64,000 bases of DNA from an uncultured delta proteobacterium. Its GTDB lineage: Bacteria > Desulfobacterota > Binatia > UBA9968. Below are positions 4,602 through 17,672 of the stretch, in pieces. The stretch is from the NCBI GenBank assembly GCA_963771465.1, contig CAVYTU010000007.1:64001-128000 (forward strand), given 5' to 3'. Within the stretch, counting starts at the first letter, position 1. Every line of letters starts with the position of its first letter. The notes beneath the pieces were generated by a model. That model was not told where the DNA came from. It was given only the letters and a program-made list of their open reading frames with translations, and made no database searches. The position numbers and the translations under genes are program-made.

Positions 4602-6692
4602 ATGGAGCCCAATCTTTACATCAATCGCGAACTGTCATGGTTGGAATTCAACCGGCGCGTGCTGCAAGAAGCCAAGGACGAGAGCGTGCCGCTGCTCGAA
4701 CGGGTTAAATTCCTCGCCATCTTTAGCTCCAACCTGGATGAATTCTTCATGGTGCGCGTGGCGCGGCTTAAACGCATGGTTTTTGAAGCCGATCAATCGG
4801 TCGATCCCGATGGCCTCACGCCGGCAACCACGTTGACGTCGATCTCGGCGCGCATGCACGAGCTGGCTGATGAACAGCATTCCTGTTTTCTCAACACCAT
4901 CATGCCCCAACTGAGCGCCGAAGGAATTCATCTCGTTCGTCCCGAAGAGATGAATGGCGAGCAGGAGAGATTTCTCGAAGATGTGTTTCACCGAACGCTC
5001 TATCCGATCGTTACGCCGCTCGCCATCGACCCTGGCCATCCGTTTCCCTATTTAGCCAACCGCTCGCTCTGCTTAGTCGTTTCGTTGCGGCCGACGGTGG
5101 TTTCGCGCCTGCCGCACACCGATCTTTCCATCCTGCATATTCCGACCCAGGTCGCGCCGCGCTTTATCTCGCTTCCCGGCCGCGAAGGGCAGCATGCCTT
5201 CATGCTGCTCGAAGATGTGCTGCGGCACTACTTGCCACGGCTTTATCACGGCTTCGAAATCGTTTCCTGCCAGGCGATCCGCGTCACCCGGGACGCTGAT
5301 TTTTTAATTTCACGGCGGCGCGATGAGAGTCTCATGATGACGATTGAAAAGGGCGTGCGCGACCGCCGCATGGGCGATGCCGTGCGGTTGCAGTACGATC
5401 CGGATTTGCCGCGTGAAATCGTCGCTAAACTGGTGGACGAGCTTGAGCTGACCAGCGAGGATCTTTATTCCGGCAGAGGCTTCACCGCTTTCACCGATTT
5501 GTTCCAACTGTATGCCGCCGTGAACATGCCCAAGTTGAAAGACCGGCCGCAGACGGCTGTGCCAGTGCCGGGGTTCGAGCGGGCGGCGGATATGTGGAGC
5601 GCGATTCGCGGCGGCGATGTGTTGACGTTTCACCCCTATCAGAGCTTTGACGCGGTGACCCGCTTTGTCGACGAAGCGGCGTTGGATCCGAAAGTGCTGG
5701 CGATCAAGATGACGCTATATCGCGTGAGCCCGACCTCACCCATCGCGCAGTCGCTGCGCCGCGCCGCTGAAGCGGGGAAAGAAGTCTCGGTGCTGGTCGA
5801 ACTGCAAGCGCGCTTCGACGAGGAAGCAAACATCACGTGGGCGCGCGCCTTGGAAGAAGTCGGCGCTCATGTCGTTTACGGCATGGTCGGTTACAAGACC
5901 CACTGCAAGGTGTGTTTGGTGGTGCGCCAGGAGGCCGACGGCATCCGACGCTACTGTCACTTGGCGACGGGAAATTACAACGTGCGCACCGCCGGCATCT
6001 ACAGCGACTTGGGCCTGTTCACGTGCCGCGAATCATTCGCGCAGGATCTGACCGAGCTGTTCAATCTGCTGACCGGCTACACGCGACCGCAGAAGTTCAA
6101 CCATTTAATATTGGCTCCGATCGGCTTGCGCGAACATTTCATAACCCATATCCGCAAAGAAGCGGACGTCGCCCGCGGCGGCCGTCCGGCGCGCATCATC
6201 GCCAAGATCAACAGCTTGATCGATCCGGCCATCATCGAAGAACTTTACCTCGCCAGCCAGGCCGGAGTGCAGATCGATTTAATCGTGCGCGGCATGTGCA
6301 GCTTACGGCCCGGCGTCGCCGGCGTTTCCGAGCGCATTCGAGTGCTCTCCATCATCGACCGCTATCTCGAGCACGCCCGGGTTTTTTATTTTCTCAACGG
6401 CGGCGAGGCGACCTATTGGCTGGCGTCCGCCGATTGGATGGAGCGCAATTTCGATAATCGTATCGAAATCGCTTTTCCCATCCTCGATCCGCAACATCAA
6501 GCGAGGCTGAAAGAGATCTTGGAAATTCAGCTCTGTGACACGGTAAAAGGCTGGCAGATGCAAAGCGACGGCAGTTTCCACCGTGCCCCCAGCGGAGCGA
6601 GCGGAGAATGCCGCTCTCAGGAACGCTTGTACGAATTGATCAGGAGCAGCGCTACGGGTTTGAGCCTAAGTCTAAACAATCTCTCGAATTAG
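4602..6692 (+). CDS. ppk1: Polyphosphate kinase 1
   Basis: YINRELSWLEFNRRVL, SNLDEFFMVRV, HPFP, KMTLYR, ARFDEEANI, KTHCK, TGNYN and RYLEHAR motifs. Start set at ATG 4602. Confidence 0.97.
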   Translation: MEPNLYINRELSWLEFNRRVLQEAKDESVPLLERVKFLAIFSSNLDEFFMVRVARLKRMVFEADQSVDPDGLTPATTLTSISARMHELADEQHSCFLNTIMPQLSAEGIHLVRPEEMNGEQERFLEDVFHRTLYPIVTPLAIDPGHPFPYLANRSLCLVVSLRPTVVSRLPHTDLSILHIPTQVAPRFISLPGREGQHAFMLLEDVLRHYLPRLYHGFEIVSCQAIRVTRDADFLISRRRDESLMMTIEKGVRDRRMGDAVRLQYDPDLPREIVAKLVDELELTSEDLYSGRGFTAFTDLFQLYAAVNMPKLKDRPQTAVPVPGFERAADMWSAIRGGDVLTFHPYQSFDAVTRFVDEAALDPKVLAIKMTLYRVSPTSPIAQSLRRAAEAGKEVSVLVELQARFDEEANITWARALEEVGAHVVYGMVGYKTHCKVCLVVRQEADGIRRYCHLATGNYNVRTAGIYSDLGLFTCRESFAQDLTELFNLLTGYTRPQKFNHLILAPIGLREHFITHIRKEADVARGGRPARIIAKINSLIDPAIIEELYLASQAGVQIDLIVRGMCSLRPGVAGVSERIRVLSIIDRYLEHARVFYFLNGGEATYWLASADWMERNFDNRIEIAFPILDPQHQARLKEILEIQLCDTVKGWQMQSDGSFHRAPSGASGECRSQERLYELIRSSATGLSLSLNNLSN

Positions 6693-7622
6693 TTTCCGCC
6701 AGGAGTCTAATTCTCGTTTTGGTTTAACTAGATAGGCCAACTCCCGACAGTATCGCTTGAGCGCTCGATAAAACCCCCTATTACCTTCCAACTTGAGCAG
6801 TATACGACGCAGCTTGGCGGTGTCGCCGCATGGATAGTAACCGGGGAATTTGGCGCCCAGCGTGCCGACCAGGCCGGGAATTTTTGACGCCACCACGGGA
6901 ACACCGCTCGCTAACGCCTCCGACAAGACGTTTGAGCTGCCTTCCATCTTCGATGTGATGCAGACGAGATCGCTGGCCGCCATCTTTGCTCGCGTGCGTC
7001 GGTGCGAAAGTTGGCCGATCCAACGGTAACGCGGGTTGCGAGCGGCCTCAGCCTTTGCCTCAGCGCCCAGTCGCGAATCCAATGCTTGACCAACGTGGGT
7101 GACTTGAATGCGCGACTCGGCGGGCAAGTTGCGCACGGCGACGCGCGTGCGCAGCGGATCTTTTTCTTCGCGCAGATGGCCGACGACACAGACGTTAAAG
7201 CTCACGCTTCGTTTCGGAGTGCTGGCTCGGACCGCCTCAGCCGACTGATAGATCACTTGAGTTTTGGCCTGCAATCGCCTGGGTAATTCTCGCAAGGCCA
7301 TCTTTTGCAGCGCCACAAGCCGGGTGGCCAGCTCAAGGGATCGTTTAGCTTTGGGATCGACGTGAATGTCGCGATAGACATCGGTGCCGGTCAGCACGAC
7401 GATGAGCGGCAGGATGGGATGACGGTCATGAAAACGCCGAATCGAATCGTAGCTGCGCCGAGCGTGGAGCGCGATGAGCAGATCGCAGGCCTTACCGTCG
7501 TAGCGTTGCGTCACGCGCACTCGGTGGCCGAGTTTTTTTAGGATTCCGGCCCAGCGCACGGCGGTGATCTTGTTGCCGTTGTTGATTTTCAGCGGCGCCG
7601 GCGTGACCAGTTGAATTTTCAC
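6672..7622 (-). CDS. senB: Selenosugar synthase SenB-like GT-B glycosyltransferase (TIGR04348-type)
   Basis: N-terminal VTPA..NNGN.ITA.RW, ALHARRS, LTGTDVYRD, VGHLREEKDP and SKMEG..NV.SEA motifs. Lies directly downstream of a SenA/EgtB homologue. Confidence 0.85.
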   Translation of the reverse strand: MKIQLVTPAPLKINNGNKITAVRWAGILKKLGHRVRVTQRYDGKACDLLIALHARRSYDSIRRFHDRHPILPLIVVLTGTDVYRDIHVDPKAKRSLELATRLVALQKMALRELPRRLQAKTQVIYQSAEAVRASTPKRSVSFNVCVVGHLREEKDPLRTRVAVRNLPAESRIQVTHVGQALDSRLGAEAKAEAARNPRYRWIGQLSHRRTRAKMAASDLVCITSKMEGSSNVLSEALASGVPVVASKIPGLVGTLGAKFPGYYPCGDTAKLRRILLKLEGNRGFYRALKRYCRELAYLVKPKRELDSWRKLIREIV

Positions 7623-7631
7623 GATGGCAGT

Positions 7632-9059
7632 TTATTGGGCGCAGGTGCGAAAGCCGGCCCAAACGTCGCGCCGGTCAGGCGTGTAGAAGTTGCGCCAGCT
7701 GTTGCGGATCAGCAGCGACGAAGTGGCCCAACAACCGCCGCGCAGAACTTTATGGGTGCCGAACCAGGGCTGTGAGTATTCCTTGTAAGGATCGACGCTA
7801 AAGCCTGGATAGGACACGAAATTGTCGGCGGTCCATTCCCAAACGTTGCCGATCATCTGGCGGCAGCCGAAGGCGCTGTCACCGGCGCCATGCGCGCCGA
7901 CCTCGACGATTCCGCCGTCGCTCCAATCGAGATTGGCATGTTGCTGGGCGGGAGAATTATCACCCCATGGATAATAGCGACGCCGCTTAGCAAGCCCGGC
8001 TCCGTTGGTTGCTGGTTCGCCGGACGCCGCCACTTCCCATTCCGCTTCAGAGGGCAATCGCCGGCCAGCCCACCGGCAAAACGCTTCGGCTTCGTACCAA
8101 CTGACATGCGCCACCGGCAGGTCTTCGTTGAGCAAGACATACTTGTCGTACACGCGTTGCTGCCAGCGCCCGTTGTCGAGCGGTTGCCAGTAGACCGGAT
8201 GGTCGAGTGTCTCTTTGAACGCGGTCAATTCCACCGGCTCGTTCAGGGTCTTATTAAAAAACTTGGCAAAGGACTTTTCCAATTGTGGCGCGCCGCCGGA
8301 TTCGAGCCATTGCCAGCCCTCGGCGCTCCAATATTTTCTCTCGCTGTAGCCGCCTTCTTCGACGAATTCTAAAAACTCGCCGTTGGTCACCGGCGCGCGG
8401 GCGATGCGAAACGGTTTGAGCTCGACCTCGTGGGCCCATTTCTCGTTGTCGAACACAAACGGAAGGTTCTTGTTGGCGCCGATCGTGAACTTGCCGCCGG
8501 GAATTTCCACGTCGCCAGGACAGGCGCGTTGATCGACATCGGCGAAAGCAGTTGGTTGGAGGAACGGCGGTGGTTGATATCCAAGCGTCTGGCGCGTGTA
8601 GGCGAGGGCTTCGGCGTGCATGCCTTCGTGAAACGTGGTTAGCCAATAAAAATAAAACTCGTCGGGCGATAGCTCAGACTTGCTGTCGATAGCTGCGATA
8701 CAACGCTCAAGCACTTCGTTCATGTAAGCCAGCGTATCGGTGCGGCTCGGCAGCAACAGTTCCCAGCGCGTGTCATGGGCGACATCGGTGGAGTTATAAA
8801 GCCGGTCGCCATGCTCCAGGATCGGCCGATCTTTACGTAAGTGACGCAGCGTCCAAAATTCCTGAGTCCACGCGACGTGGCCAATTTCCCATAACGGTGG
8901 ATTGACGATGGCGATACGCGGTCCGATCATCTGGCTATCGTCAAGGTCGACGACCAGGCTGAGCAAGCGGTCACGGAACTCGCGCATGGTGGCGATCAAT
9001 TGGTGCACGCTCATCGCGGCGATAGGACTGGCGGTCGCGCTGGAAATCATCGTTGGCAT
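7632..9059 (-). CDS. senA: Selenoneine synthase SenA (EgtB-family non-heme iron enzyme: DinB-like + FGE domains)
   Basis: NPPLWEIGH and FHEGMHAE supply the 3-His iron site. Also VAHDTRW, FVFDNEKWAH, RLPSEAEWE, GNVWEWT, PYKEYSQPWF and RNFY..DRRD. Adjacency to senB favours SenA over plain EgtB. Confidence 0.85.
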   Translation of the reverse strand: MPTMISSATASPIAAMSVHQLIATMREFRDRLLSLVVDLDDSQMIGPRIAIVNPPLWEIGHVAWTQEFWTLRHLRKDRPILEHGDRLYNSTDVAHDTRWELLLPSRTDTLAYMNEVLERCIAAIDSKSELSPDEFYFYWLTTFHEGMHAEALAYTRQTLGYQPPPFLQPTAFADVDQRACPGDVEIPGGKFTIGANKNLPFVFDNEKWAHEVELKPFRIARAPVTNGEFLEFVEEGGYSERKYWSAEGWQWLESGGAPQLEKSFAKFFNKTLNEPVELTAFKETLDHPVYWQPLDNGRWQQRVYDKYVLLNEDLPVAHVSWYEAEAFCRWAGRRLPSEAEWEVAASGEPATNGAGLAKRRRYYPWGDNSPAQQHANLDWSDGGIVEVGAHGAGDSAFGCRQMIGNVWEWTADNFVSYPGFSVDPYKEYSQPWFGTHKVLRGGCWATSSLLIRNSWRNFYTPDRRDVWAGFRTCAQ

Positions 9060-9140
9060 TTCGGCATTTGTCGCGAAATTCTTGACCGATTCAATTGGCC
9101 GAGAATTTATTCTACTTGATTTGATGGATATCGCTACCCG

Positions 9141-10283
9141 TCATAGATCTGAAATCAGTTTTAACATGGCCGCGCGCCAGGGCGCTAATTCTTTCACCCA
9201 GCGTCGACCACGATTGCGTTCGACGTAGGCGCATGCTGCCCGCAGTCGGCGCGTCTCGGCTGGTGTTAGTTGCAGCGCGCGTTTATCCTGTTTGGCGGCG
9301 ATGCTCGCTTCAGCATAACTCCTGAGCGCCCGCCACTGAGGTAACGCCGCGGCGCCGAAGCGCTGGCGAACGATTTTCGTCCAGGACGATTCCGCTCGGT
9401 ACTTGGCTGGCGCCCAGGCGTAATCGAAGCAAGTCGCTAACGGTAGGAAGCTCAAATCTTCCTGGAGCAATGGATTGTTGAGATAGCCGTAGACGCATTC
9501 CGGCAAGCGCGGGTCGCGTCCCGTCAGTGGCGTGAGATGCAACTCGTCACTCATGGACAGGTCGTTTACCGGATAATTGTCCCATAGCAGCAGGGGGCGC
9601 TCGATCTTTTTGACGATGCGCTTCACATGAGAAAGAGCGATGCTCTTTGAAACCACTGATGGGCCGGTCCAGAAGCAGGGGACGTCGGACGGAAGATAGC
9701 GAACCAAAGTTTCAAGAAAGTTCAGCTCGAATTTGCCGAAGACCCGTTCGAGCAGCGCATCTTCGCTGTAATACGAAGGACAAATCCACCACTCGACGTC
9801 GCTCCAACTCGACGGCTGCGCGGCAATGATTTTTGCCATCCAAGTCCCTTCGGCCCGCGCCAGACTATTCTTGAACGCGCGCCGGTCGCGCGCATCGGTC
9901 AAGCGCGAAGGAATATCGTCGAACAGCACGGCGAAGGTGCGCACGCCGGCATCGTAGAAGCGCTGCGCTTTGCGGAGAAGGATGCGAACGGCGTCATCGT
10001 CGCCAAAGTACAAACCTTCGCCGGGATGAAAACCGTAGACGAAATCGATTTGATGTTTATTTGCAGCTCTAATTAAGCGCAGTAGCTCACGCCATTGCGC
10101 CGCGGGGTAAGGTCGTCGCCAAAGTTTGCGGTGATAGGGATCATCCTTGGGCGCATAGAGATAGGTGTTCATACCGCGCGCCGCGCCAAATGCAAACAGA
10201 CGCCGCCGGTGCGCCATCGACCACAGCGGACCGAAGAAGCCTTCGACGATGCCGCGGCGCTGAAAAGTCTTGGCAGGGTTCAT
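9141..10283 (-). CDS. GH84 beta-N-acetylglucosaminidase (O-GlcNAcase-like), no signal peptide
   Basis: RGIVEGFFG, YLYAPKDDPYHR, catalytic FAVLFDDI dyad, CPSYY, WTGP and LWDNYPVND. Confidence 0.88.
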   Translation of the reverse strand: MNPAKTFQRRGIVEGFFGPLWSMAHRRRLFAFGAARGMNTYLYAPKDDPYHRKLWRRPYPAAQWRELLRLIRAANKHQIDFVYGFHPGEGLYFGDDDAVRILLRKAQRFYDAGVRTFAVLFDDIPSRLTDARDRRAFKNSLARAEGTWMAKIIAAQPSSWSDVEWWICPSYYSEDALLERVFGKFELNFLETLVRYLPSDVPCFWTGPSVVSKSIALSHVKRIVKKIERPLLLWDNYPVNDLSMSDELHLTPLTGRDPRLPECVYGYLNNPLLQEDLSFLPLATCFDYAWAPAKYRAESSWTKIVRQRFGAAALPQWRALRSYAEASIAAKQDKRALQLTPAETRRLRAACAYVERNRGRRWVKELAPWRAAMLKLISDL

Positions 10284-10540: not shown

Positions 10541-11401
10541 CTAGCTCTTCAAAAACGGCACGCCCAGGCGCATCAGGTCGTCGAAGGCATCCCAATGCAC
10601 CATGTGCTTGCAGCCATTGACAATGTGGAGGTTGAGCTGCGGTTGTTGTTGTTTGAGCAATTCGGCGCGTTCGCCGGCGTGTGCCCGGTCCTCGCGGCCA
10701 AATATCATCAATAGCGGCATCTTCAGGTCGGCGAGTCTCTCCCATAACGGCTTGGCCGGCGCCGCGCCGCCCGCCGGCGCGTCGTGACTCTGGCGTTCCT
10801 GGTGCGCGATGAAATTGCGACCAGTCATGCGGCTGTGGCGTATGGCCACGTCTTCGTCCGAGATCAAGGCATGGTTGAAGGTGTCCGCCTGCAGGAGTTT
10901 GCGGGCATCCTCCAGCGTCGGTTCCTTTTGCGCCATCTCTTTGTCGACGCGCGCCTGTACCGCTTCGTACCTGCCGACCTGCGCTTCGGTCTGCAGCGGC
11001 AGCAAAGAGCCGGTGCCAAGAATGACGACATGTGAATAGCGGCTCGGGTCGTCCAATGCCAGTTGAATCGCGAAGCCGCCCGAGCGCGAGTGCGCGATCA
11101 GCGCGGTCTTGCCCAGTCCCGCGGCATCGATGAATTTCGGGATGGAATTGCGTTGCTGCGCCGTGCTTTGCTTGGCGGGAATTTCGGAAAGGCCAAAGCC
11201 GGGAAGGTCAAAGGCAACCGCGCGAAATCCGGCCCTGGCAAATGGGCCAAGATTGCGCAGAAACACGTCCGCCGAGCTGCCGAGCGACGCGCCATGCAGA
11301 AACAGCAGCGATGGCCCTGAACCTTCTTCGATATAACGAAGTTGCAGTCCATCGACGCTAACAAACTTGTCTTTCGGTTTGATTCTTTCCACAGTATCCA
11401 T
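10541..11401 (-). CDS. Alpha/beta-fold hydrolase
   Basis: FLHG, DLPGFGLS, nucleophile elbow AHSRSG, GREDR acid and CKHMVH histidine. Confidence 0.85.
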   Translation of the reverse strand: MDTVERIKPKDKFVSVDGLQLRYIEEGSGPSLLFLHGASLGSSADVFLRNLGPFARAGFRAVAFDLPGFGLSEIPAKQSTAQQRNSIPKFIDAAGLGKTALIAHSRSGGFAIQLALDDPSRYSHVVILGTGSLLPLQTEAQVGRYEAVQARVDKEMAQKEPTLEDARKLLQADTFNHALISDEDVAIRHSRMTGRNFIAHQERQSHDAPAGGAAPAKPLWERLADLKMPLLMIFGREDRAHAGERAELLKQQQPQLNLHIVNGCKHMVHWDAFDDLMRLGVPFLKS

Positions 11402-11673: not shown

Positions 11674-12486
11674 ATGCGCATTGCCACTCAAGCCGTTACA
11701 TTTTGTTTTGCCACCGCGTTGCTCGGGTTGCCGCTATTTGAATCGGATGGCGCCGATTCCAAAGCCGCCTCGGACATGATTCGCGTTCCCGCTGGCCCAT
11801 TCCTGATGGGCAGCAACAACGGGCCGGAAGATGAGCGGCCACAGCATCAAGTTAACGTCGCCGAGTTTTTCATCGACCGAACTAAAGTGGCTAACGCGCA
11901 TTTCGCACAATTCGTGAATGCGCGCGGAGTGAAGTCAGCCGACGGACAAATATGGTACGATAGCGATGATAACGACGCGCGGATTCATCGGCGCGACGGT
12001 AAATGGCAGGCCGATGCCGGCCATGAGAATCATCCGGTGGTGGAAGCTTCTTGGTACGGCGCGTCGGCGTATTGTTCATGGGTTGGCAAGCGTTTGCCCA
12101 CCGAAGCGGAGTGGGAGAAGGCGGCGCGCGGTACGGATGGCCGAAAATATCCCTGGGGCAACGATGCGGTGGATTCAACGCGGGCGCATTTCAATGGCGG
12201 CTGGAACGATTTCCGCCCGGTGGGAAGTCTTCCCAAAGGCGCGAGTCCATACGGCATGCTTGACGCCGCGGGCAACGGCTGGGAATGGGTGAGCAGCGCC
12301 TATATGCCTTATCCTTACAATACCAACGACGGGCGCGAAGATTTTACCAAGGCGCAAGTGCGCGTCACGCGCGGCGGCGGGCAGGATTCGCGAGCCGACG
12401 AATTGGCCACCACGCATCGCGGCCGCCATGTGTCGCGCAATCCGCGCGGTGGCCATCACAACATCGGCTTTCGCTGCGCTCGCTGA
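11674..12486 (+). CDS. Exported FGE-sulfatase/SUMF1-fold protein (EgtB C-domain/PvdO-like)
   Basis: N-terminal hydrophobic signal, GPFLMGS, DERPQH, HPVVEASW, RLPTEAEWEKAARG, GNGWEW and IGFRCAR. The FGE catalytic Cys pair is absent. Confidence 0.85.
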   Translation: MRIATQAVTFCFATALLGLPLFESDGADSKAASDMIRVPAGPFLMGSNNGPEDERPQHQVNVAEFFIDRTKVANAHFAQFVNARGVKSADGQIWYDSDDNDARIHRRDGKWQADAGHENHPVVEASWYGASAYCSWVGKRLPTEAEWEKAARGTDGRKYPWGNDAVDSTRAHFNGGWNDFRPVGSLPKGASPYGMLDAAGNGWEWVSSAYMPYPYNTNDGREDFTKAQVRVTRGGGQDSRADELATTHRGRHVSRNPRGGHHNIGFRCAR

Positions 12487-12501: not shown

Positions 12502-13143
12502 ATGCCGGCCTATTTCATCACCCAAGGCGTACTGATCGGCTTCGTGGTCGCCGTGCCGGTTGGTCCGCTCGGAATCTTATGCATCAACCGCGCGCTGGTA
12601 GCGGGGGCGTTATGCGGACTTATTTCCGGCCTTGGGGTGGCGACCGCGGATGCGCTGGCGGCGAGCGTCGCGGCTCTGGGTATCTCGTTTGTATCGGGCT
12701 TTTTGATCAAGCACCAGATTGTTTTGCGTCTGGCGGGCGGTGTATTTCTCTGTTACCTCGGCGCACAGATTTATCGCACCAAACCGAAACCGGCGGCGGC
12801 GCCGCCGAGCGACGTCAACGGCTTGGTCAATGCTTACGCGACGACGTTCGTCCTAACCTTTTCCAACCCGGTGACGCTACTTTCATTTATCGCGATCTAT
12901 GCCGGCTGGCATGTGCCGAGCTTGCAGGGGCGATATCTTGCCGCGGCCCTGCTGGCGCTCGGCGTCCTTATCGGTTCGGCGCTTTGGTGGGTCTGTTTGT
13001 TCATTGGCATGACGGCGTTTCGCGAGAAATTCAGTCTCGACGCGCTCGTCTGGGTGCATCGTGTTTCAGGCGCATTGATGGTCGGGTTCGGTATCGTCAT
13101 ACTTTTAAGCTTGTCGCCGCTCAAGCAGGTATTCGGTATTTAA
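12502..13143 (+). CDS. LysE/RhtB family translocator
   Basis: G..VAVPVGP.GILCI.R, GLGVATADA and F.LTFSNP motifs; about six hydrophobic segments. Confidence 0.85.
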   Translation: MPAYFITQGVLIGFVVAVPVGPLGILCINRALVAGALCGLISGLGVATADALAASVAALGISFVSGFLIKHQIVLRLAGGVFLCYLGAQIYRTKPKPAAAPPSDVNGLVNAYATTFVLTFSNPVTLLSFIAIYAGWHVPSLQGRYLAAALLALGVLIGSALWWVCLFIGMTAFREKFSLDALVWVHRVSGALMVGFGIVILLSLSPLKQVFGI

Positions 13144-13150
13144 ATCTAAG

Positions 13151-14122
13151 ATGCTAAGTGAGTCGATCGCCTTTGTGAGCCGCGCCGGCGGCGTACCCAG
13201 CGTGATTAATGGCGCATTAGCGCTTTTTCATATTGGCTTGAATATTTTTCAATTTGTCATCTTGCCGTTGTGGCTTTTGCCGCTGGAGCGAAACTGGGCC
13301 TGGACGCTTTTGCCGCTGGCGCTATTGACCAATCCGTTCTGGAGTCTGATTCACGAGGCGATCCACGATCTATTTCATCCCAACCGCCGCGCGAACGCTC
13401 TGACCGGCCGCCTGCTGGCGATTCTGTTCGGTTCGCCGTTTCGCATCCTTCGGCAGAGCCATTTGCTCCATCATAAGCTCAATCGCATGCCGGTGGAGGG
13501 GACGGAATATTACGATCGCGGCAAAGGCGCTAAAGCTGCGGCGGCGCCGGGGTACTATTTTCAAATTTTGCTCGGCCTGTATCTCGTCGAAGTCGTGAGC
13601 ACGCTGGGTTTCCTTTTGCCGCGTCAATGGCTGCAACGATTCCGCGAAAAACATTTGCCGGCACACAGCGTCAGCAGCATTCTTATGCAGAACTGGCTTG
13701 GTGCGGAATCACTGCGCGAGATTCGCCTCGACGGTTTGCTCACCCTCGTGTGGCTGTCGTTTTCGTTTTGGTTATACGGTGAGAGCTGGCCGCTGCTGCT
13801 CGCCGTGTTAGTGGCGCGTGGCTTTTTGATTTCGTTTCTCGATAATGTGTATCACTACGAAACTCCGGTGAGCGATGTGTTCTTCGCAAAAAATCTCCAG
13901 TTGCCGGCGCCGCTCGCCAAGCTGCTGCTCAATTTTAACCTCCACGGCATTCACCATATCAACCCGGCGATCTCGTGGATCAATTTACCGAAGGCTTTCG
14001 AAGTCCAAGGGGCGAAGTTTCAAGGCCGCTACTTTGCCGCAGCCCTGCGCCAACTGCGTGGCCCCATCGCGCTCCAGGAATTGCCCCAAGGCGCGCCGAC
14101 GCTGCGCGTGCGGCCAAATTAA
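13151..14122 (+). CDS. Membrane fatty-acid-desaturase superfamily di-iron enzyme
   Basis: Three His boxes, HEAIH, HLLHH and HGIHH, separated by TM segments. Confidence 0.8.
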   Translation: MLSESIAFVSRAGGVPSVINGALALFHIGLNIFQFVILPLWLLPLERNWAWTLLPLALLTNPFWSLIHEAIHDLFHPNRRANALTGRLLAILFGSPFRILRQSHLLHHKLNRMPVEGTEYYDRGKGAKAAAAPGYYFQILLGLYLVEVVSTLGFLLPRQWLQRFREKHLPAHSVSSILMQNWLGAESLREIRLDGLLTLVWLSFSFWLYGESWPLLLAVLVARGFLISFLDNVYHYETPVSDVFFAKNLQLPAPLAKLLLNFNLHGIHHINPAISWINLPKAFEVQGAKFQGRYFAAALRQLRGPIALQELPQGAPTLRVRPN

Positions 14123-15147
14123 CCTTCTTTACGAAACAACAGCACCGAGAACCATTGATTAGCGTCGGTGAAGTGCTCGACCGGTGTGAGGCCGATGAAT
14201 CGTAATTGTTGTTGGAGCCGGTTGGCGTCGAATTTGCGGCTGATCTCGACGAGAATTTTTTCGTTCTGACGCCACTCGAATGCAGCACCAGCGTTCGGGA
14301 AGCGAATTTCCTGGGACGCGGTGGCGACGGCGTACATTTCGATCTGTTGCCATTCTGGATTGAACCAGGATTGGTAGCGCATTTGCTTCAAGTCGAAATT
14401 GGCGCCGAGCAAACCGTTGATGTTGCGAAAGACATTCAAGATAAATTCAGCGGTGATGCCGCGGCTGTCGTCGTAGGCGTCTTCGAGTAATTTTACCGGT
14501 TTTATCCGGTCGGCGCCGAGCAGAAGATAATCGTCGGGCCCCATGGCCGCCGATAGGGCGCGGAAAAAGCGCGGAAACTCGGTATGGTTGAAGTTGCCGA
14601 TGGTGCTGCCGAGAAAGACGAACAAGGTCGGCAGACTTTTTTCGATGGCGCAAATGCCGTCTTCGTAACGTGCGTGGATGCCGTGGAATTCCAACTGAGG
14701 AAAATCCTTTTGCACCGCGCTCTGTGAAGCGAGCAGGCCGGCGACGCTTACATCAATGGGCGCGAAGACACTCTGGCCGCGCTGGCGCGTTTGCTCGCTC
14801 AGCAAATGGATGGTTTTCTTGCTGTAACCGGCGCCGAGCTCGACGATGCATTTTACCGGCGCGGCGGCGACGATGTTCTTCGCGTTGGCTTCGAGAATGC
14901 TATTCTCCGTTCGCGTCAGATAATATTCCGGCAGGTCGCAGATATCTTCGAACAATTCCGAGCCGTGCTCGTCGTAGAGATGATAGGCTTCGAGCCAGCG
15001 CGGCTGATCCCAAAGCGTGGTCAAGATCGACATGGTTGGAATGGCGTCGAGGTCGGCGTCTTGCAAAGACCAGATGCCCGGCGGATTGGACAGCCAGCGC
15101 GAGCGCTGATCGGCGGCGAAGATATGTGGCGCTGTTGGTTGTGTCAT
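14119..15147 (-). CDS. egtD: L-histidine N-alpha-trimethyltransferase (hercynine synthase)
   Basis: YD..GSELF..I..LPEYYLTRTE, VELGAG..KKT, FLGSTIGN, AYDD..GITA.F, IEM and EISRKF motifs. Confidence 0.9.
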   Translation of the reverse strand: MTQPTAPHIFAADQRSRWLSNPPGIWSLQDADLDAIPTMSILTTLWDQPRWLEAYHLYDEHGSELFEDICDLPEYYLTRTENSILEANAKNIVAAAPVKCIVELGAGYSKKTIHLLSEQTRQRGQSVFAPIDVSVAGLLASQSAVQKDFPQLEFHGIHARYEDGICAIEKSLPTLFVFLGSTIGNFNHTEFPRFFRALSAAMGPDDYLLLGADRIKPVKLLEDAYDDSRGITAEFILNVFRNINGLLGANFDLKQMRYQSWFNPEWQQIEMYAVATASQEIRFPNAGAAFEWRQNEKILVEISRKFDANRLQQQLRFIGLTPVEHFTDANQWFSVLLFRKEG

Positions 15148-15345: not shown

Positions 15346-16113
15346 ATGAACAGCAATGAAACAACGATCAGATTTTGGGATGTGAACTTCGTCCTGCCCG
15401 ACGGCAAGAAGTTGCTCGCCGATCTCAATCTTGAGGTCGCGAGCGGCGAGACTCTGGTTTTGCTCGGCCGCAGCGGCTCTGGCAAGACGACGATGATGAA
15501 GTTGATCAACCGGCTGATCGATCCGACTTCGGGGCGGCTAGAGGTGGAAGGGAAGGCGACGGTGGAGTGGGACCCGATCCAACTGCGCCGGCGCATCGGT
15601 TACGTCATCCAAGAGATCGGTTTGTTTCCGCATCTGACCATCGAGCAGAACATCGGGGTTGTCCCGCGGCTCGAAGGTTGGGAGCCGGATCGTATTGCCG
15701 AGCGGGCGCGCGAGCTGTTGAAACTCGTCGGCCTCGACGCCGACCGCTTCGCTCAGCGATTTCCCCGCGAGTTGTCCGGCGGGCAGCGCCAGCGTATCGG
15801 GGTGGCGCGGGCGTTGGCTGCCGATCCGCCGGTCATTCTTCTGGACGAGCCTTTCGGCGCCCTAGATCCAATCACTCGGCACGGCATTCAGCAAGAATTC
15901 AAATCCCTGCAACAGGAACTCGGCAAGACGATGGTGTTCGTCACGCACGACATCGCCGAGGCTTTTGTCCTGGCGACTCGCATCGCGCTATTGAAAGACG
16001 GCGAGATGGTTTTGCTCGGGCCGCCGGCTGAGCTGCTCGAATCGAGCCATCCGGAAGCGCGCGCTTTCGCCGAGTGCTTTCACGACGGTCAAAGCATCGG
16101 GAGACCGAAGTGA
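15346..16113 (+). CDS. ABC transporter ATPase, OpuC/ProV/EgtV (quaternary amine) family
   Basis: Walker A GRSGSGKT, KLINRLI, LRRRIGYVIQ, LSGGQRQR and LLDEPFGALDPITR. Confidence 0.92.
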   Translation: MNSNETTIRFWDVNFVLPDGKKLLADLNLEVASGETLVLLGRSGSGKTTMMKLINRLIDPTSGRLEVEGKATVEWDPIQLRRRIGYVIQEIGLFPHLTIEQNIGVVPRLEGWEPDRIAERARELLKLVGLDADRFAQRFPRELSGGQRQRIGVARALAADPPVILLDEPFGALDPITRHGIQQEFKSLQQELGKTMVFVTHDIAEAFVLATRIALLKDGEMVLLGPPAELLESSHPEARAFAECFHDGQSIGRPK

Positions 16114-17672
16114 CGCTGCTGGAATTCTTCACCCACAACAGCGGCGAACTCGGCGAGCTGGTCTTAGAGCATTTATTTTTAGTCGTCGTTTCCACCGGCA
16201 TCGCCGTGCTGATCGGCGTGCCACTCGGTATCTTGCTGACGCGCAAACCGGGATTGAGTAAACCGATTCTCGGCTTCGCCAACATCATGCAGACGGTGCC
16301 GAGTTTGGCGCTGTTCGGTTTTCTCATTCCGCTCAATCTTTATCTATTCAATGTGAAGATCGTTGGCGGCATCGGCGCGCGCACGGCGATCGTCGCGCTG
16401 GTGCTTTATTCGCTCTTGCCGATCATCCGCAACACGTTTACTGGAATTTCCAATGTCGATCCGGCGATCCGCGAAGCCGGGCGCGGCATGGGCATGACCG
16501 ACCGTCAATTGCTTCTCCAAGTCGAGTTGCCGCTGGCGCTGGGCGTAATCATCGCCGGCGTGCGCGTGGCGACCGTGATTTGCGTTGGCACGGCGACGAT
16601 TGCCGCGGCGATCGATGCCGGCGGCTTGGGGCGCTATATTTTTCGCGGCCTGCGCGCCAATGATAATGTTTTGATTCTTGCCGGAGCGGTGCCCGCGGCG
16701 CTGATTGCCCTTGCCGCGGATTTACTTTTGGGCTACGTCGAGAAAACGATTCAGTCCGGGGCGGCGGTTAAGGTAAGCGGTCGCAAACTTTTATGGTCCG
16801 GCGCCGCGGCTCTGTTGGTTTTTCTCGCAGTAGCGTATTTCTTTTTAGGCAAAAGCGCCGGGCGCATCGCGGTAGGCTCAAAAGACTTCACCGAACAAGT
16901 CATTGTCGGTGAAATTCTCGCCCAGGCGATCGAAGCGAAAACCGGTGCCGAAGTGGTGCGCCGCTTCGATCTCGGCGGCAACTTAGCGCACGATGCGCTG
17001 ATCGCCGGCGAAATCGACGTCTATGTCGAATACACGGGCACGGGCTTACTGGCGATTCTCAAGGAAAAGCCGCTGTCCGATCCGCAGGAAGTTTATCGAC
17101 GGGTGAAGTCGGAATACGCCAAGCGCTTCAAGTTGGAGTGGACCGAGCCGCTCGGCTTCAATAATACTTTCGCCATTCTCGTCCGCGGCGATGACGCCAA
17201 AAAGCTCAATTTGAAAACCGTCAGCGACGCCGCAAAGGTCTCCAATCAATGGCGCGCCGGTTTCGGCCAGGACTTCATGTCACGCGCCGACGGTTATCCG
17301 GGATTTTCCAAAGCCTACGGCTTTCACTTCGAAGCGACACGCGAGATGGATTTGTCCTTGACCTACCGGGCGCTGGCGGAAAACCAAGTCGATCTGATCG
17401 CCGGTAATTCCACCGACGGTTTGATCTCGCGCTACGGCTTATTTCAGCTCGACGATGACCGCCGCTATTTCCCACCCTACGACGCCGTGCCGGTGGTGCG
17501 CCAGGCCGCGCTGGAAAAATATCCGGCGCTGCGCGAGGTGCTAAAACAACTGGGTGGCATTCTTAGCGTCGACGAAATGCGCAAGCTCAATTATGCGGTG
17601 GACGCTGAGAAGCGGCAGGCGAAGGATGTGGCGCGGGAGTTCTTACGGCAAAAACGGCTGCTCGATCATTGA
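16110..17672 (+). CDS. Fused permease + substrate-binding protein of a betaine-type ABC importer (EgtU/OpuBC-like)
   Basis: TMD with QTVPSLALFG and EAGRGMGMT loop, then SBP with GSKDFTEQ, EYTGT, NNTFA, STDG and FPPYDA. The GTG start overlaps the ATPase stop (GTGA). Confidence 0.9.
   Translation: MTLLEFFTHNSGELGELVLEHLFLVVVSTGIAVLIGVPLGILLTRKPGLSKPILGFANIMQTVPSLALFGFLIPLNLYLFNVKIVGGIGARTAIVALVLYSLLPIIRNTFTGISNVDPAIREAGRGMGMTDRQLLLQVELPLALGVIIAGVRVATVICVGTATIAAAIDAGGLGRYIFRGLRANDNVLILAGAVPAALIALAADLLLGYVEKTIQSGAAVKVSGRKLLWSGAAALLVFLAVAYFFLGKSAGRIAVGSKDFTEQVIVGEILAQAIEAKTGAEVVRRFDLGGNLAHDALIAGEIDVYVEYTGTGLLAILKEKPLSDPQEVYRRVKSEYAKRFKLEWTEPLGFNNTFAILVRGDDAKKLNLKTVSDAAKVSNQWRAGFGQDFMSRADGYPGFSKAYGFHFEATREMDLSLTYRALAENQVDLIAGNSTDGLISRYGLFQLDDDRRYFPPYDAVPVVRQAALEKYPALREVLKQLGGILSVDEMRKLNYAVDAEKRQAKDVAREFLRQKRLLDH

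Follow-up and report, generated by a model that had tools for sequence, protein, structure and literature searches.

Is the loss of the sugar in the last step of selenoneine biosynthesis truly spontaneous in reducing cells, or can it be assisted by an enzyme? The question is raised by a locus in a 64,000-nucleotide stretch (hereafter the window) of contig CAVYTU010000007.1 (GenBank assembly GCA_963771465.1, positions 64,001 to 128,000) from an uncultured delta proteobacterium, placed by GTDB in UBA9968 (Desulfobacterota, Binatia). Here, a gene for a beta-N-acetylglucosaminidase of glycoside hydrolase family 84 (GH84) lies adjacent to, and co-oriented with, senA and senB, which code for selenoneine synthase and selenosugar synthase. 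Based on the conservation of this neighborhood across the GTDB order, we consider the protein most likely to be a lineage-specific accessory enzyme, predicted to hydrolyze a conjugate of beta-linked seleno-N-acetylglucosamine (SeGlcNAc). This suggests that the sugar-removal step thought to be spontaneous may be enzyme-assisted in this order of uncultured soil bacteria. We put the probability that the GH84 protein deglycosylates hercynyl-SeGlcNAc, thereby releasing selenoneine, at about 40%.

In those sections of the published reports that concern this step, the selenoxide product of SenA was not seen directly (bioRxiv 10.1101/2022.04.13.486033), and selenoneine is proposed to form by spontaneous internal elimination (the same preprint; restated in PMC11639659). 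When dithiothreitol is present, the reduced hercynyl-SeGlcNAc selenoether accumulates (bioRxiv 10.1101/2022.04.13.486033). GH84 enzymes use the 2-acetamido group of beta-linked N-acetylglucosamine (GlcNAc) as the nucleophile, together with an Asp-Asp dyad (PMC4263850, PMC10636738). Because SenB, which is promiscuous for the sugar, yields beta-configured selenosugars (PMC10891094), SenA prefers SeGlcNAc (bioRxiv 10.1101/2022.04.13.486033) and GH84 catalysis requires a beta-linked 2-acetamido sugar (PMC10636738), we favor the hercynyl-SeGlcNAc conjugate as the probable substrate.

The initial annotation, made from the sequence alone, had described an intact GH84 domain with an FDDI motif, free of signal peptide and carbohydrate-binding modules and ending about 80 bp before co-oriented senA-senB. 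This description held. Residues 10-310 of the protein match PF07555 (NAGidase), with 268 bits against a cut-off of 25; a Pfam search of the protein matched no other family. Its N-terminus reads MNPAKTFQRRGIVEGF, and the catalytic domain begins at about residue 8. Since the stop-to-stop frame has only 382 codons, neither a signal peptide nor a carbohydrate-binding module would appear to fit, as judged from the N-terminus by eye. Both D122 and D123 are conserved in an alignment of 84 GH84 sequences; the corresponding dyad has been defined as D174/D175 in human OGA (PMC4263850). The gap to senA is 81 bp, senB starts 9 bases after senA on the same strand, and both sen genes pass the curated NCBIfam cut-offs. 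No other GH84 is encoded in this 6.9-Mb genome.

Structural data agree with the family assignment. The AlphaFold2 model derived from the 84-sequence alignment (pLDDT 95.9, pTM 0.93) has a predicted catalytic (beta/alpha)8 domain and a short C-terminal helical bundle. All the matches listed by Foldseek were GH84 chains, the top one being 5DIY (TMq 0.84-0.85, 30% identity), which was also the best sequence match in the PDB (E 3e-64). Of the 42 positions that are conserved both in the orthologue clade and in 51 distant GH84s, none has changed in the window protein; they include K46, Y172, W205, N236, D241 and N270, and with them the residues of the -1 subsite. The gene and its active site are thus intact, and the product is most likely a cytoplasmic retaining beta-N-acetylglucosaminidase, predicted to hydrolyze beta-GlcNAc linkages. 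It does not belong to the NagJ-type GlcNAcases as defined by the equivalog model NF041654, scoring 194.8 bits against a cut-off of 1000 over profile positions 144-425 of 732. In the 84-sequence alignment, 16 positions are invariant in the clade and rare in other GH84s. Three of them (D175, L178 and F182) are within an insertion that follows the CPSYY motif, adjoining F185. The clade-invariant H86 is replaced by Ser in 80% of other GH84s, and the clade-specific F189 by Tyr in 90%; W317 is likewise specific to the clade. The orthologue group is isolated: a comparison with 1.84 billion cluster representatives gave a single full-length relative at 58% identity, followed by full-length ones at 44% or below. 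Named close homologues carry the label Candidatus Binatia.

We then asked how consistently the gene accompanies the sen genes. The survey of the order comprised 123 genomes, with SenA accepted at E<=1e-72; gene coordinates were compared and doubtful cases settled from fetched DNA. The counts take in four unpublished genomes (G005, G035, G385 and G388). A GH84 orthologue was present in 103 and SenA in 107 of the 123 genomes. In 90 of the 103 GH84-bearing genomes, GH84 is upstream of senA, co-oriented and at most 3.2 kb away, and with the genomes added in which it precedes senB instead, 94/103 have GH84 directly upstream of a sen gene. In family f3, the distance to senA is below 200 bp in every case (27/27). 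The 63 linked genomes of family f1 have gaps of 0.6-3.1 kb, which in the loci examined contain the gene for an alpha/beta-fold hydrolase, labeled abH. In seven further genomes the contig ends right after GH84 or abH. Orthologues located mostly in genomes lacking senA and senB would have spoken against the initial proposal; apart from G381, a 60%-complete metagenome-assembled genome (MAG), no orthologue-bearing genome proved to lack sen genes.

The order of genes within the cluster varies. The window has abH-GH84-senA-senB, two genomes of the same genus (G017 and G019) have GH84-abH-senA-senB, f3 has Amidohydro_2-GH84-senA-senB, and G418 (locus L019) has egtD-GH84-abH-senA. In G036 (locus L123) the order is egtD-GH84-senB, with egtD directly upstream of GH84. 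Flanking genes vary as well: ppk1, the other neighbor of senB in the window, keeps that place in just 1 of 12 other loci, and the GH84-senB pair of family f2 is flanked by hydantoinase and RND efflux genes. Because architectures vary and flanking genes turn over, the linkage of GH84 to the sen genes does not appear to be merely frozen gene order. Co-occurrence (both genes in 100 genomes, neither in 13, SenA only in 7, GH84 only in 3) is by itself weak evidence, since both genes are nearly universal in the order (SenA in 58/58 and GH84 in 54/58 of the high-quality genomes) and tend to be missing jointly from incomplete MAGs.

Within the proposed pathway, GH84 would have been recruited once, at the base of the Binatia order, as an accessory enzyme of selenoneine synthesis. 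EgtD would provide hercynine, and SenB would convert UDP-GlcNAc and selenophosphate into 1-seleno-beta-GlcNAc. The selenophosphate would be supplied by a distant SelD of the selenocysteine type. The only SelD above the cut-off in the genome (G000:C14:200711-201637, locus L001) is on another contig, far from the sen genes, and has one in-frame TGA; it probably contains selenocysteine. SenA would couple hercynine and 1-seleno-beta-GlcNAc into the hercynyl-SeGlcNAc selenoxide. GH84 would then hydrolyze the beta-Se-glycosidic bond of the conjugate. Its likeliest substrate would be the selenoether formed if cell reductants reduce the selenoxide before elimination, and the selenoxide itself may also serve. 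Hydrolysis would use the substrate's 2-acetamido group and D122/D123, and would yield selenoneine (or the selenenic acid) and GlcNAc, so that an otherwise dead-end shunt product would be rescued and the sugar recycled.

If so, the pathway would cope with a reducing cytoplasm, where reduction of the selenoxide outpaces its elimination. With a probability somewhat short of an even chance, GH84 would be a genuine selenoglycosidase, no earlier natural enzyme having been devoted to hydrolyzing a C1-Se glycosidic bond, and the last step of selenoneine synthesis would be enzymatic in this order. The fixation of a dedicated GlcNAc hydrolase in the operon of a whole order would bear on whether that step is truly spontaneous in reducing cells. 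It also points to GlcNAc as the sugar that SenB uses physiologically in these organisms, despite the promiscuity of SenB in vitro. In practical terms, GH84 is a concrete, cloneable candidate Se-glycosidase. Such an activity is not described in the literature searched, namely CC-licensed PMC and bioRxiv full texts. There, no paper connects selenoneine with a glucosaminidase, GH84, hexosaminidase, O-GlcNAcase or glycoside hydrolase. In engineered producers GH84 might raise selenoneine yields through rescue of the shunt product and recycling of GlcNAc.

Known systems help to place the enzyme. The canonical senA-senB-senC cluster (Variovorax paradoxus and others; Kayrouz et al., bioRxiv 10.1101/2022.04.13.486033) likewise has adjacent, co-oriented senA and senB, with egtD nearby. 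In contrast, the window cluster has no senC, its SelD being distant and TGA-containing, and has GH84 and the alpha/beta hydrolase in addition. In the sections of the canonical work that deal with sugar loss it is described as spontaneous, whereas here GH84 is a candidate for that step; this addition to the known sen system is suggested by synteny only. The closest GH84 of known structure, the Thermobaculum terrenum O-GlcNAc hydrolase 5DIY, is also a single-domain protein; it likewise has a C-terminal part made of helices and lacks a secretion signal. The window enzyme differs from it in being about 90 residues shorter and in having the clade-specific insertion after CPSYY and H86. T. terrenum has an OGT, whereas the genome of the window has no OGT partner. 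Human OGA, Clostridium perfringens NagJ and Bacteroides BtGH84 have the DD dyad and the substrate-assisted retaining mechanism (PMC4263850, PMC10636738) and are also matched by fold; unlike the window GH84, they either are secreted and have several domains or serve as erasers of protein O-GlcNAc. A functional analogy is offered by EgtC and EgtE of the ergothioneine pathway, in which the remainder of the sulfur donor is trimmed enzymatically after the iron enzyme has formed the C-S bond (bioRxiv 10.1101/2022.04.13.486033). Their families (an amidohydrolase and a PLP lyase) are unrelated to GH84, and the trimming proposed here would be glycoside hydrolysis of an Se-C1 bond.

However, a number of observations weigh against assigning the removal of sugar from hercynyl-SeGlcNAc to GH84. 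To begin with, SenA, SenB and SenC alone suffice for selenoneine formation in vitro (bioRxiv 10.1101/2022.04.13.486033), so GH84 is no general requirement. As to chemistry, human OGA leaves Cys-linked S-GlcNAc intact, according to the relevant sections of PMC8791055 and PMC10636738. Because this thioglycoside resists OGA, GH84 enzymes cannot be expected to cleave chalcogen glycosides automatically. Thioglycosides with good leaving groups are reportedly cleaved, a result ascribed to Macauley et al. in 2005. Our assignment leans on selenoneine being, as we infer, a far better leaving group.

The genomic exceptions point in the same direction. Four genomes (G037, G039 and G041 of family f2, and G036) have GH84 directly upstream of senB and carry senA at another place. 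In 2 of the 103 genomes it is away from the sen genes altogether. In G005, a case that comes wholly from an unpublished genome, senA-senB is on another contig and no sen genes occur in the 6.4 kb downstream of GH84. In G381, neither SenA nor SenB was found, and GH84 is flanked by an AAA gene on one side and MacB-type transporter genes on the other. SenA without detected GH84 occurs in seven genomes, mostly fragmented assemblies; in one, G378, there is no GH84 in the 2.2 kb upstream of senA.

Outside the order, the association disappears. An even sample of 301 genomes across the phylum had a GH84 orthologue in three, of which two are in the family of the window (G351 and G000, the genome of the window itself); the remaining match is a paralogue of 36% identity without sen genes nearby. 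In the same class, senA-senB pairs occur in eight genomes from other orders, and GH84 is missing from all of these loci (0/8, with approximately 1 to 10 kb fetched on each side of senB). For other phyla, we used the best 80 of 589 confirmed SenB stretches from 13 of the 64 parts of a species-representative collection; the total of SenB-bearing stretches is estimated at roughly 3100. Being ranked by likeness to Methylorubrum SenB, the 80 loci are mostly from Alpha- and Gammaproteobacteria, with a few from Acidobacteriota, one from Actinomycetota and one labeled Bathyarchaeota. Among them senA was present in 67 and a senC of the PNDR-SelD type in 70, and GH84 in none (0/80 by both tblastn and a GH84 profile that gave 14 hits on Binatia control loci). 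No glycosidase was found in any of three proteobacterial plasmid sen loci (0/3). A 2026 census that covers the 5-kb surroundings of these iron enzymes lists no GH84 or alpha/beta hydrolase in the part consulted (PMC13674229). Thus, GH84 is absent from the sampled sen clusters of independent lineages, whether in other phyla, in other orders of the class or on plasmids. The enrichment next to senA and senB, which the initial annotation proposed to test, stands within the order (94/103) and fails as a general link (0/88 SenB loci outside the order, 0/3 plasmid loci). Because GH84 was not found in sen loci outside the order, its recruitment is a one-time event confined to this order, and canonical producers do without the enzyme. 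All the support for the assignment is accordingly synteny that goes back to a single evolutionary origin.

Transcript data neither add to nor subtract from this. A simple scan of positions 9060..9140 on the minus strand revealed no promoter-like or terminator-like site, in a search whose totals were near the shuffle expectation (5 versus 2.7 promoters and 9 versus 7.0 terminators). The RNA data were short Logan contigs from four soil and rhizosphere metatranscriptome runs, in which DNA carry-over is possible. A large part of senB and senA is matched by one contig (X1) at >=99%, and another (record 3) crosses the senB/senA junction; a few bins of GH84 are covered. No listed contig bridges the 9060-9140 gap between GH84 and senA, which, as such contigs cannot prove a transcript, counts neither way on co-transcription.

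The main alternative is that GH84 acts on free 1-seleno-beta-GlcNAc or its diselenide, giving selenide and GlcNAc, as a release valve when hercynine or oxygen is limiting. Because the cluster has no dedicated senC, such an activity would protect the selenophosphate pool shared with selenoprotein synthesis. The four genomes with GH84 directly upstream of senB and senA elsewhere fit this explanation at least as well as the removal of sugar from the conjugate. So does an f2 genome (G043) that has SenA and in which neither GH84 nor SenB was found, as would be expected of a GH84-senB unit. The absence of senC from the Binatia cluster, as compared with its presence beside SenB in 70/80 other loci, and the sole, distant SelD with an in-frame TGA are also in its favor. 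However, it would put a futile cycle first in the operon, and it has no biochemical precedent in the literature searched. In addition, senA is part of the same gene string in 90/103 genomes, so the linkage cannot separate the two substrates. On balance, we regard hydrolysis of the free selenosugar as unlikely.

It is likewise improbable that GH84 is unrelated to selenium, i.e. that it is a housekeeping GlcNAcase or an eraser of protein O-GlcNAc that is beside the sen genes by inherited gene order. Such a role would agree with the closest solved structure being an O-GlcNAc hydrolase (5DIY), with the placement of GH84 apart from sen genes in G005 and G381, and with the sen loci outside the order that do without it; the near-universal presence of both genes in the order means that their co-occurrence says little. 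Yet the genome, which is 99.36% complete, codes for no GT41 OGT (PF13844), in a search whose controls matched Caulobacter and Synechococcus, which argues against an OGA/OGT pair. Since one GH3 NagZ-like gene is present elsewhere in the genome (no GH20 was found), a housekeeping cytoplasmic GlcNAcase is already available. Moreover, the orthologue group is confined to the order, the next relatives apart from the single 58%-identical cluster representative being at most 44% identical, and its place beside the sen genes has survived at least four rearranged architectures while other neighbors turned over.

Two other roles are considerably less probable, and a small remainder of the odds falls to something else. 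Glycosidases can hydrate glycals, and GH84 might salvage the sugar that remains once elimination has occurred spontaneously; it could, for instance, add water to an unsaturated 2-acetamido sugar to restore GlcNAc. The published elimination must leave an unsaturated sugar, whose identity we infer, and the other accessory genes are also of hydrolase type (abH in f1 and Amidohydro_2 in f3). However, no paper naming the by-product or showing such a GH84 activity was found, and the carbon saving would be small, making this role very unlikely. Least probable is a sulfur version, also raised by the initial annotation, in which SenB and SenA would act on a thiosugar and GH84 would free ergothioneine (as the sulfenic acid) from a stable hercynyl-S-GlcNAc sulfoxide: senC is missing from the cluster, and with thioglucose SenA forms a sulfoxide that, in the experiments described, accumulates without elimination and hence would need a hydrolase (bioRxiv 10.1101/2022.04.13.486033), but the idea finds no support because no 1-thio sugar or thiophosphate source is evident, while SenA and SenB pass selenium-specific NCBIfam equivalog cut-offs and the genome has SelD and a second EgtB-like gene on contig C17.

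Table 1. Features of the GH84-sen region, with coordinates in the 64,000-nucleotide window
Feature	Position	Strand	Evidence or context
senB, selenosugar synthase (GT-B glycosyltransferase)	6672..7622	-	TIGR04348, 401.7 bits versus cut-off 300
senA, selenoneine synthase (DinB and FGE-sulfatase domains)	7632..9059	-	NF041186, 482.2 bits versus cut-off 420; Pfam
Gap between GH84 and senA, 81 bp	9060..9140	-	GH84 stop codon 9141-9143; senA ATG 9059
GH84 beta-N-acetylglucosaminidase, 380 aa, ATG start	9141..10283	-	PF07555; AlphaFold2 model; PDB and Foldseek matches
FDDI motif, residues 121-124 (D122-D123, catalytic Asp-Asp dyad of GH84)	9912..9923	-	Alignment of 84 GH84 sequences
abH, alpha/beta-fold hydrolase, distantly like meta-cleavage-product hydrolases	10541..11401	-	Second accessory gene of the cluster in f1
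Short FGE-sulfatase-like protein, signal-peptide-like N-terminus, no DinB domain	11674..12486	+	Divergent neighbor of GH84 in f1 and f2
LysE-type exporter	12502..13143	+	Conserved beside the cluster in f1
Fatty-acid-desaturase-like membrane protein	13151..14122	+	Window gene order
egtD, histidine trimethylase making hercynine (SenA substrate)	14119..15147	-	TIGR03438, 298.2 bits versus cut-off 290.9
ABC ATPase, OpuA-type, next to egtD	15346..16113	+	Window gene order
Fused permease and OpuAC-type binding protein, next to egtD	16074..17672	+	Window gene order

The genes around the cluster (Table 1) follow the order ppk1 (+); senB, senA, GH84 and abH (-); the FGE-like, LysE and desaturase-like genes (+); egtD (-); and the OpuA-type ABC transporter. 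No senC was found near the sen cluster in the window. The position of abH, upstream of GH84 here, is between GH84 and senA in relatives; by tblastn, abH was not found in any of the 88 SenB loci outside the order. The cluster thus has a second, variable accessory hydrolase, abH in f1 and in f3 an Amidohydro_2 protein encoded upstream of GH84 (L107:5349-6563, minus strand). Open frames of 625-786 codons around GH84 in f3 were considered as possible fusions and rejected, as the extension has no Pfam domain and the true upstream gene is Amidohydro_2 in another frame. Among proteins of 666-2000 aa, no GH84-Sen fusion was found at E<=1e-60, which is weak evidence of absence.

The block of FGE-like, LysE and desaturase-like genes stays divergent from GH84 in many f1 genomes, and in f2, too, GH84 is paired with the FGE-like gene. 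We rejected this gene as a catalytic partner of GH84, as its product has a signal-peptide-like N-terminus (by eye) and no DinB iron domain, and it is absent from the f3 loci examined. The LysE protein could export the product of the cluster. The layout of the ABC transporter beside egtD resembles importers of the betaine/ergothioneine type, such as EgtUV. Homologues of its ATPase occur within 10 kb of senB in 32 of the 80 loci of other phyla. OpuB-type ABC genes have been noted as frequent neighbors of these iron enzymes (PMC13674229).

The unlinked senA copies, three in f2 (L005, L007 and L009) and two in G036 (L130 and L131), are 47-50% identical to the window SenA. The copy in G037 is beside a DNA-methylase fragment. 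In a quick SenA tree (midpoint root, the careful search being unfinished), the unlinked f2 sequences form their own clade outside f1 and f3, which hints, not firmly, that the original senA may have been replaced by an acquired copy in these cases.

A second EgtB/SenA-like iron enzyme is encoded in the genome of the window by a 464-codon frame (G000:C17:1132559-1133857). It scores approximately 226 bits with both the EgtB and the SenA models, below both cut-offs, and many genomes of the genus have orthologues. At one locus (G028:C27:7235-12150), in a single MAG, both genes look broken, GH84 being split with one TGA and SenA split in two, which could reflect either joint decay or an assembly error. 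Finally, one in-frame TGA each, which may stem from a sequencing error, a pseudogene or selenocysteine, occurs in the SenA matches of two genomes of the same genus (G014:C29:295865-297238 and G001:C72:6925-7641).

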